DNA of 64,000 nucleotides from Chlamydiota bacterium (GTDB taxonomy: Bacteria > Chlamydiota > Chlamydiia > Chlamydiales > JAAKFR01). Position numbers and translations under genes: made by a program. Shown here one piece after another: positions 2,600-3,671 of the stretch (its first letter is position 1; the number at the start of each line of letters is the position of its first letter). The DNA is taken from assembly GCA_013288105.1 (NCBI GenBank), contig JABDCM010000001.1, positions 55,659-119,658 on the forward strand, in the 5' to 3' direction. The notes below the pieces were generated by a model. It was not told where the DNA came from, did not search any database, and saw only the letters and a list, made by a program, of their open reading frames with translations.

Positions 2600-2617
2600 G
2601 AGATACTGTAAAGGCAT

Positions 2618-2740
2618 CAGCCGTTCTCTAAATTATGCTGATGTATTATTTTATTAATGGGGCTGCGCCCCAAACCCCTCAGCCGTTCTCTAAATTATGC
2701 TGATGTATTATTTTATTAATGGGGCTACGCCCCAAACCCC
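2618..2740 (+). repeat. Two tandem copies of a 62-bp unit (CAGCCGTTCTCTAAATTATGCTGATG...GGGGCTRCGCCCCAAACCCC)
   Basis: The unit restarts at 2618 and 2680. Each unit contains the hairpins TCAGC-N15-GCTGA and GGGGC-N3-GCCCC. Confidence 0.85.
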
Positions 2741-2922
2741 ATCGATCCACTTTGCTTCGCAAGTGAAAGGATTAGACTTGTCGGGGCCCTTTCGGTCCCC
2801 CGCGCCCCTAGGGCTGTTGGGACTGTGCGCAACTGCTGCCCTACGGGTCGCTGCGCACTCGCTCGCCGTGCTAAAGCACTGATCTTCGCTCGCTTACAGC
2901 GATTGCGCTTTGCCCCAACAGC

Positions 2923-3178
2923 CATCGACTATGTTATTGTTCAATCAATTTCATTGGTGAACAACAACATAGACTTTAGAATGGAGCCGCAGTGCCTGCG
3001 GGAAACATGGCTAGATGTCAGTATCATCCATTAGCTTGAAAAACTTACAGCATCGACTATGTTATTGTTCAATCAATTTCATTGGTGAACAACAACATAG
3101 ACTTTAGAATGGAGCCGCAGTGCCTGCGGGAAACATGGCTAGATGTCAGTATCATCCATTAGCTTGAAAAACTTACAG
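2923..3178 (+). repeat. 128-bp direct tandem duplication (2 copies) at the centre of the palindrome
   Basis: 2923-3050 and 3051-3178 read identically. Each contains the hairpin CCGCAG-TGC-CTGCGG and an imperfect 13-bp hairpin ATGTTATTGTTCA/TGAACAACAACAT. Confidence 0.9.
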
Positions 3179-3405
3179 CAACGATTGATTTGTAAAAGTT
3201 ACCGCAGGTACTGCGGGTCGATGGCTGTTGGGGCAAAGCGCAATCGCTGTAAGCGAGCGAAGATCAGTGCTTTAGCACGGCGAGCGAGTGCGCAGCGACC
3301 CGTAGGGCAGCAGTTGCGCACAGTCCCAACAGCCCTAGGGGCGCGGGGGACCGAAAGGGCCCCGACAAGTCTAATCCTTTCACTTGCGAAGCAAAGTGGA
3401 TCGAT

Positions 3406-3643
3406 GGGGTTTGGGGCGTAGCCCCATTAATAAAATAATACATCAGCATAATTTAGAGAACGGCTGAGGGGTTTGGGGCGTAACCCCATTAATAATACAT
3501 CAGCATAATTTAGAGAACCGGCTGAGGGGTTTGGGGCGTAACCCCATTAATAATATACATCAGCATAATTTAGAGAACCGGCTGAGGGGTTTGGGGCGTA
3601 ACCCCATTAATAATACATCAGCATAATTTAGAGAACCGGCTGA
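3406..3643 (-). repeat. Four tandem copies (62/58/60/58 bp) of the same unit, inverted relative to 2618-2740
   Basis: Units start at 3406, 3468, 3526 and 3586. Length differences lie in the AT-rich linker (AATAAAATAATAC / AATAATAC / AATAATATAC). Confidence 0.85.
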
Positions 3644-3671
3644 TGCCTTTACAGCATCTACTAGCCATTCT

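Follow-up and report, generated by a model that had tools for sequence, protein, structure and literature searches.

A mosaic intergenic repeat beside dnaE in an uncultured Chlamydiota bacterium, built on a non-coding, strongly folding core with apparent copies elsewhere in the genome

Our study examined a 64 kb stretch of DNA from a Chlamydiota bacterium (GenBank assembly GCA_013288105.1, contig JABDCM010000001.1, positions 55,659 to 119,658), referred to here as the window, and all coordinates are positions within it. The gap between dnaE, which ends at 2599 on the plus strand, and a converging gene for a HAD-family hydrolase, which ends at 3672 on the minus strand, was found to be repeat sequence throughout. 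The locus is a mosaic intergenic repeat, and is not a gene, a defence system or a mobile system with an enzyme of its own. Its key module is a non-coding, strongly folding core of ~189 nt that appears to belong to a young, genome-specific repeat family, and two copies of this core lie head to head, with their inner ends toward the centre. [quoted passage not shown] The family is new and local; its kind is that of the common bacterial intergenic repeat, and it does not represent a new kind of system.

The locus forms a nested inverted repeat (2590-3685) that reaches into the ends of both flanking genes. An earlier note on this DNA, made from the letters alone, had described the gap as consisting of repeats only, which was borne out, and as stopping short of the hydrolase gene, whereas the repeat runs into the ends of both dnaE and the HAD gene. 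The 17-bp outer termini that it reported, CTGTAAAGGCATCAGCC, were found at 2606-2622 and inverted at 3638-3654, and are part of a longer, imperfect inverted repeat of 34 nt (2590-2623 and 3637-3670, 91 %). As this repeat starts at 2590, the dnaE stop codon is covered by it. At the left outer junction (2590-2616, no strand assigned), alignment identified the imperfect extension of the inverted repeat together with the terminus CTGTAAAGGCA. The right terminus, TGCCTTTACAG, and the loop of the terminal hairpin occupy 3644-3662 (no strand assigned), as defined by repeat comparison and motif count, and TTACAGCATCTACTA in this region is similar to the junction of the two 128-bp units of the centre.

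The arms of the inverted repeat extend over 279 nt and are 99 % complementary (2651-2929 and 3217-3495), with a perfect part of 264 nt (2666-2929 and 3217-3480). They are mirrored around a coordinate sum of 6146, as had been noticed before, although they had been put at ~247 bp; the open reading frame (ORF) peptides of both arms, of 61 aa each, are indeed identical. The 17-34-bp outer inverted repeat belongs to the duplicated arms. Between the arms lies a spacer of 287 nt, rather than the 293 first proposed, and the 128-bp tandem duplication seen there proved to be perfect: two units, 2923-3050 and 3051-3178, were 100 % identical (2923-3178, plus strand; Tandem Repeats Finder [TRF] and folds). 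Each unit starts with CATCGAC, ends with CTTACAG and contains a 44-nt A+T-rich hairpin and a CCGCAG-TGC-CTGCGG hairpin (z scores of the folds, -3.8 and -3.0). The remainder of the centre is a unique 38-nt segment (3179-3216, no strand assigned) with an inverted copy of the CCGCAG...CTGCGG hairpin at 3202-3216; read on the minus strand, it gives a terminator-like hairpin and then TAACTTTTAC, a type of site whose overall number is at chance level. The locus is an inverted repeat with a 287-nt spacer, and not a long perfect palindrome. The argument that such palindromes are unstable in bacteria was therefore overstated, because 287 nt separate the arms. None of the repeat motifs was found elsewhere in the 64 kb window, where shuffled sequences lead to an expectation of 0 matches.

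As a separate observation, 5 of the 11 occurrences of the heptamer TTACAGC in the window fall within the 1.1-kb element (2894, 3045, 3173, 3246 on the minus strand, and 3649). Each 128-bp unit has one such site at its end, each core contains one and the fifth lies at the right terminus; the heptamer may be a microhomology or recombination motif.

Outside the cores, the arms carry arrays of a 58-62-bp satellite unit, in the copy numbers that had been claimed: two units of 62 bp on the left (2617-2740, plus strand) and, on the right, four inverted ones with lengths of 62, 58, 60 and 58 bp (3406-3643, minus strand), both delimited by repeat search, TRF and unit alignment. All units share a 7-8-bp hairpin with a 15-nt loop, which is followed by a U-rich tract, then an A+T tract and a GC hairpin of 13 nt. 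In the left units these elements read CATCAGC(15 nt)GCTGATG, the A+T tract, the GC hairpin GGGGCTRCGCCCC and AAACCCC. The inner satellite unit is identical on the left and right, while the three outer right units constitute a variant subfamily (CCGG, a shorter A+T tract and a GTTAC loop), which argues that the tandem expansion postdates the duplication.

Alignment also detected a partial copy of the unit (3663-3685, plus strand, 20/23 identical) in the orientation opposite to that of the right array. This copy reaches across the stop codon of HAD into its final four codons, so the repeat does not stop 13 nt before the HAD gene. In the HAD transcript, the partial unit is predicted to pair with the terminal unit in a hairpin of -42.9 kcal/mol (z -6.3) with the stop codon inside it and a U-rich stretch, UGUAUUAUUAAU, after it.

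The left core (2741-2929; better-folding, outward strand, minus) is a perfect mirror of the right core (3217-3405, plus strand), which was delimited by its folds and by this mirror relation. No other GC island in the window is as strong as the two cores, which have a GC content of 62-66 % over 100 nt and up to 72 % over 80 nt, compared to a mean of 42.3 % for the window, in agreement with the GC enrichment noted previously. In the predicted fold, the stem P1 (GUCGAU/AUCGAU) closes the structure, 3223-3334 forms a long branched domain, and two hairpins follow, a variable one with a GAAA loop at ~3344-3364 and another at 3379-3400. The two strands are not equivalent: the outward strand folds at -83.6 kcal/mol with 67 pairs, 9 of them G·U (z -3.6), and the inward strand at -71.3 kcal/mol with 58 pairs, 2 of them G·U (z -2.35). 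As the outward strand folds better, the pair, if acting as RNA, would be divergent, and the earlier suggestion of a convergent pair of structured-RNA genes is not supported.

The core is present in multiple copies. A HMMER search with the 92-aa ORF that runs across the core (3143-3421) against 1.84 billion representative proteins returned exactly two relatives, and a profile search of a set of 5.8 billion proteins returned four ORFs in all (P0242, P0243, P0244 and P0245). P0244 is a spurious ORF of the left core at this very locus (2725-2925, minus strand). P0245 is located on a contig of 131,563 bp, the same size as the contig of the window, but is not encoded in the window, and P0242 and P0243 share one contig of 50,747 bp, whose sources (NCBI and JGI) are those of this genome. 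When P0242, P0243 and P0245 were compared with the window by tblastn, they matched only the two arms and never at 100 % (77-84 %, and 57 % for P0245 over a longer, gapped alignment), and they must therefore be encoded elsewhere. We infer from these sequences a dispersed repeat family to which the core belongs, represented by no fewer than five copies distributed over three or more loci.

When the ORFs were threaded on the DNA of the window, the codon positions that the amino acid determines were 92-96 % identical. Between core copies the reading frames shift, and the insertions and deletions are confined to two hairpin tips. In the loops, GUA is replaced by GCA, and GAA by GNAA or GCAA, both of the GNRA type when read on the outward strand; shorter G-run/C-run hairpins take the place of the GAAA hairpin's tip. 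Two inferred C>T changes would convert G-C pairs to G·U on the outward strand and produce A·C mismatches on the inward strand, and two further differences disrupt the predicted but weak basal helix of the GAAA hairpin. This pattern favours selection on one single strand, as RNA or as single-stranded DNA, with support that is modest because copies this much alike leave no scope for real covariation. At the P0245 locus, the tail of the ORF, when back-translated, fits the satellite unit's GC hairpin directly after the core and then an inverted copy of that hairpin, which suggests that in most copies this hairpin moves along with the core; P0243 lacks the unit GC hairpin after its core.

The gap contains no transposase or protein-like ORF, as had been stated, and no small ORF within it had a Pfam match. 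A protein-coding function for the core was considered and rejected, since its only ORF relatives are the other repeat copies, in shifted frames, and the frameshifts between copies rule out a conserved protein. The public gene calls P0242-P0245 (63-74 aa) have no relatives outside the repeat family and are almost certainly spurious 'hypothetical proteins', as judged from sequence comparison.

Searches of databases beyond this genome did not recover the family. Screening against Rfam, which the earlier note had proposed, gave no match at gathering thresholds, and at E values up to 10 gave only noise, none of it on the core; tRNA and tmRNA were likewise not found, and known RNA families were rejected on this basis. 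No known RNA or insertion sequence (IS) family matches the core, a match that the earlier note had named as grounds for refuting its reading, and the IS605-related and HEARO RNA families of Rfam gave no match. The whole element had no blastn match among plasmids and phages. An exact-match scan of GTDB genomes with a satellite-unit 21-mer returned 0 matches, and a gapped pattern of the core stem returned 12, which we ascribe to chance because they lie in unrelated phyla and none has the internal core motifs. In JGI metagenomes, a core 28-mer had 0 matches and a satellite-unit 20-mer had 1 chance match, in eukaryote-like sequence. DNA scans of viral contigs yielded 0, 0 and 1 match, the last by chance in a high-GC stretch (L004) with nothing beyond 21-22 nt, and a protein-pattern scan of viral contigs yielded nothing. 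Within the limits of exact-match scanning, the core family appears to be confined to this genome. Our literature search on interspersed non-coding repeat families in environmental chlamydiae, chlamydial MITEs and palindromic repeats found no reports.

The preferred explanation, inverted duplication of a structured repeat, draws on the contrast between the arms, which are 100 % identical over 264 bp, and the other copies, which differ by 4-8 % plus insertions and deletions; this points to a recent local inverted duplication or gene conversion. Replication slippage afterwards would have generated the perfect 2 x 128-bp tandem and the unequal arrays of 2 and 4 units. The family would most probably spread as a non-autonomous element, by means of an enzyme encoded elsewhere or by recombination, and mobility is suggested by copy number only. 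Selection on one single strand would act on the outward strand. A foreign or selfish nature is suggested by a GC content of 62-72 % compared to 42 %, by the lack of anything similar at the dnaE loci of the nearest relatives and by the probable horizontal origin of the HAD gene. The cellular role is probably incidental, in that the hairpins may end and stabilise the transcripts of the converging genes.

Several observations weigh against this explanation. The 50.7-kb contig is assigned to the same genome by inference from identical source labels only, and the nucleotide changes in the other copies are all inferred from protein sequences. Around the core, the analysis found neither terminal inverted repeats nor a consistent target-site duplication, and no transposase, integrase or recombinase domains were found in the 50 ORFs of ≥150 aa in the window. 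With regard to the terminator role, the 3' hairpin on the dnaE side is not significant (z -0.46), making that role weak there, and a consensus terminator scan found 1 site compared to 1.4 expected, which is chance level. Finally, the GNRA-type loops and the G·U asymmetry fit a functional RNA equally well.

As a candidate terminal inverted repeat, the core ends offer only the 6-bp stem GTCGAT/ATCGAT. A TCGATGG direct repeat flanks the core copy on both sides here, whereas the P0243 copy instead ends in GGATCAATGA; the flanks of the whole locus are inverted-similar and are not direct repeats, so that no target-site duplication was found for the locus either. The earlier proposal of a non-autonomous mobile or recombinogenic element is upheld in part: the locus is non-coding and transposase-free, has dispersed copies and lies at a synteny break point, but neither a classical terminal inverted repeat nor a duplication of the target site was found.

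The alternative that survives best, which we regard as possible but doubtful, is that the locus is a divergent pair of ~190-nt small-RNA genes, read outward from a central promoter and belonging to a paralogous family of at least five, with the satellites serving as 3' hairpins or terminators. The better folding of the outward strand, with 9 rather than 2 G·U pairs, would be expected of such genes, as would the GNRA-type loops (GAAA; GAA, GNAA or GCAA), the confinement of insertions and deletions to hairpin tips and the toleration of the two G-C to G·U changes on the outward strand only. A plus-strand promoter-like site (3036-3063) spans the junction of the 128-bp copies. However, promoter-like sites occur at chance frequency (2 found, 1.9 expected), and a shared promoter is not evident because the two sides of the centre are asymmetric. 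The outward strand also has no U-rich terminator after the core, no Rfam family matched even at E values up to 10, the family is absent from the other genomes and metagenomes scanned, and the copies are too alike to display true compensatory covariation.

In a broader version of this idea, the core would be an undescribed structured RNA or a single-strand-mobilised element whose outward-strand fold is under selection, with the locus as a divergent gene pair. Its characteristics would be the closing stem P1, the branched domain and the two hairpins, whose loops are GNRA-type. We consider this unlikely. On such a model, the core could act as a self-propagating or guide-type RNA spreading in this chlamydial genome.

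Less probable again is an origin from a single-strand-DNA transposon, in which the core would be a non-autonomous derivative of the type of IS200/IS605 palindrome-associated transposable elements (PATEs), or of the type of repetitive extragenic palindromes (REPs) with their RAYT proteins, mobilised by a Y1 HUH transposase acting in trans. Such an origin would explain the strand-specific hairpins and the missing terminal inverted repeats and target duplications, and the structural strand asymmetry and the lack of both classical features are in keeping with it. In addition, TCGAT adjoins the 5' end of the core and makes up its 3' end, and TTACAGC recurs at module junctions (5/11 of its occurrences in the window); TTAC is the target of IS608. 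Yet none of the ORFs of ≥150 aa in the window has TnpA, TnpB or RAYT domains, the IS605-related and HEARO RNAs in Rfam were unmatched, the 3' pentanucleotide varies among copies (TCGAT, TCGAC and TCAAT) and the ends of the element are not definable from this locus alone.

An assembly artefact, in which the assembler, chimeric amplification or fold-back reads made the inverted duplication or the tandem counts, is very unlikely. The sequence comes from a draft contig with a frameshift in the essential gene secY, at a G9 run; short reads have difficulty with perfect arms of 264 bp and a perfect 128-bp tandem, and a short-read Logan contig ends within the terminal unit. However, a different unique gene lies next to each arm, and the centre meets a core copy at either end, which leaves arm, centre and inverted arm as the sole path; ambiguity is limited to how the centre is oriented and how many copies the perfect tandems have. 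A fold-back chimera would also mirror the flank, and the two arrays are unlike, the right one containing a consistent variant subfamily. The junction of the HAD gene with the terminal unit, including the CCGG variant, recurs in this short-read contig (L001, from SRR8433710, a run that may not be independent of the assembly), and other, diverged copies of the core exist. An invertible or recombinogenic switch, in which recombination between the 264-bp arms would flip the 287-bp centre and so turn a promoter or terminator, is highly improbable, for although long perfect inverted arms do surround an asymmetric centre with one plus-strand promoter-like and one minus-strand terminator-like site, both matches are at chance level, dnaE and HAD both point inward and leave nothing downstream to switch, no recombinase is nearby and a test for an inverton was negative.

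Returning to the duplicated structured repeat, comparison with known elements shows likenesses to several families. Assignment to the MITEs, to REP/BIME or to the IS200/IS605 PATEs cannot be claimed, and no target duplication was found when this was tested. The locus resembles enterobacterial BIMEs, which are composed of REP units, in being extragenic, between converging genes, non-coding and a mosaic of short motifs, with GC-rich hairpins that alternate in orientation; in both, co-transcribed 3' hairpins can stop transcription or stabilise mRNA, a role that is putative here. It differs from BIMEs in its size (~1.1 kb), in a main module that is a branched structure of ~189 nt rather than a 20-40-nt palindrome, in the lack of sequence similarity, in a copy number that is established only as at least five, for the core, and in the lack of a RAYT among the ORFs of the window.

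Bacterial MITEs, such as the Neisseria Correia elements, ERIC/IRU and the Coxiella QMITEs that give rise to small RNAs, are similarly non-coding, multi-copy, genome-specific, structured and intergenic, and can provide promoters, terminators or small RNAs. In common with them, the core is short (~189 nt), non-coding and without a transposase, and has multiple dispersed copies (at least five, inferred from ORFs). In contrast to them, no terminal inverted repeats or demonstrable target-site duplication were found for the core and no parent IS was identified in the collections scanned, while the whole locus is a locally duplicated pair and not a single insertion, and at ~1.1 kb is larger than usual. 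Like the IS200/IS605 PATEs, it has strand-specific hairpins and possibly a short fixed motif at one end, and shows neither terminal inverted repeats nor target duplication; unlike the PATEs, it has no TnpA or TnpB among the ORFs of the window, no defined ends and no related Rfam RNAs. Rickettsia palindromic elements (RPEs) are likewise lineage-specific palindromes expanded in an obligate intracellular genome and can overlap gene ends, but RPEs typically lie in frame inside genes and are not GC-rich islands, whereas the present locus extends over no more than a few terminal codons of dnaE and HAD.

The flanking genes provide context for the locus. The 3' part of dnaE (56-2599, plus strand), encoding DNA polymerase III alpha, was recognised by the Pfam DNA_pol3_alpha, finger and HHH_6 domains. 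Its nearest proteins are 73-74 % identical, and those that are named come from Chlamydiales or Chlamydiae metagenome-assembled genomes. The DnaE tail, NRRNS, is ~3-5 aa longer than in relatives, and the last codons and stop codon of the gene are inside the imperfect outer inverted repeat. The HAD-family hydrolase gene (3672-4280, minus strand) is full length according to Pfam and homologue comparison. Its best homologues are ≤53 % identical, the named ones being from Bacteroidota, Planctomycetota, Verrucomicrobiota and Acidobacteriota, and the gene was probably acquired horizontally. At the dnaE loci of the two closest relatives that could be fetched (L002 and L003), neither such an element nor a large non-coding gap was found; other genes lie between dnaE and a conserved gene of ~277-279 aa, and gene order differs. 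Taken together, the gene order of the relatives and the origin of the HAD gene place the repeat at a synteny break point beside a probably acquired gene.

Two further ideas were rejected. The HAD gene does not travel with the repeat, as two other HAD loci (L018 and L019) leave no room for it, the next called gene overlapping the HAD end. A replication terminus or dif site is also rejected, since the sign change in GC skew at the locus is local and tracks gene orientation, the skew is positive over the next 60 kb and there is no large-scale switch.

The window also encodes ribosomal proteins, RpoA, LpxC, FtsK, a split SecY and an rRNA operon. SecY is split into ORFs 26843-27802 and 27627-28214 (plus strand), which match the first and second halves of Pfam SecY, with the frame change at a G9 run (27662-27670); either the assembly has an indel error at this homopolymer, or the gene itself is frameshifted or a pseudogene. 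The 23S rRNA match (57930-62260) extends over 4331 nt compared to a model of 2925 nt, and within it is a group I intron-like match (59888-60561; 40.7 bits, gathering score 50; E 2.8e-8). An ORF for a LAGLIDADG_1 endonuclease (60083-60592) begins within the intron-like match and ends 31 nt beyond it. The sequence thus indicates that the 23S gene holds an intron with a homing endonuclease, an arrangement that is also known in Simkania. The ORF at 33904-34713 (minus strand) combines Gp49/HigB-like toxin and HTH_37 antitoxin-like domains and looks like a fused toxin-antitoxin-type protein. Two eukaryote-like proteins, of the mitochondrial-carrier family and with a SET domain, are encoded by ORFs 35836-36639 and 51997-52623 (both minus strand), respectively; proteins of these kinds are typical of intracellular bacteria that exploit eukaryotic hosts, and Chlamydiae are obligate intracellular bacteria.

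In summary, the wider significance of the repeat is limited because the family appears confined to one genome. Treating P0242-P0245 as repeat copies removes spurious genes from public annotation, and the family marks where short-read assemblies of this lineage break or misjudge copy number. If it is true that the core is a discrete transcript, it would be a candidate for a new RNA family. What this uncultured chlamydia carries appears to be a repeat family of recent origin, GC-rich and strongly structured, which shapes a synteny break point beside dnaE.

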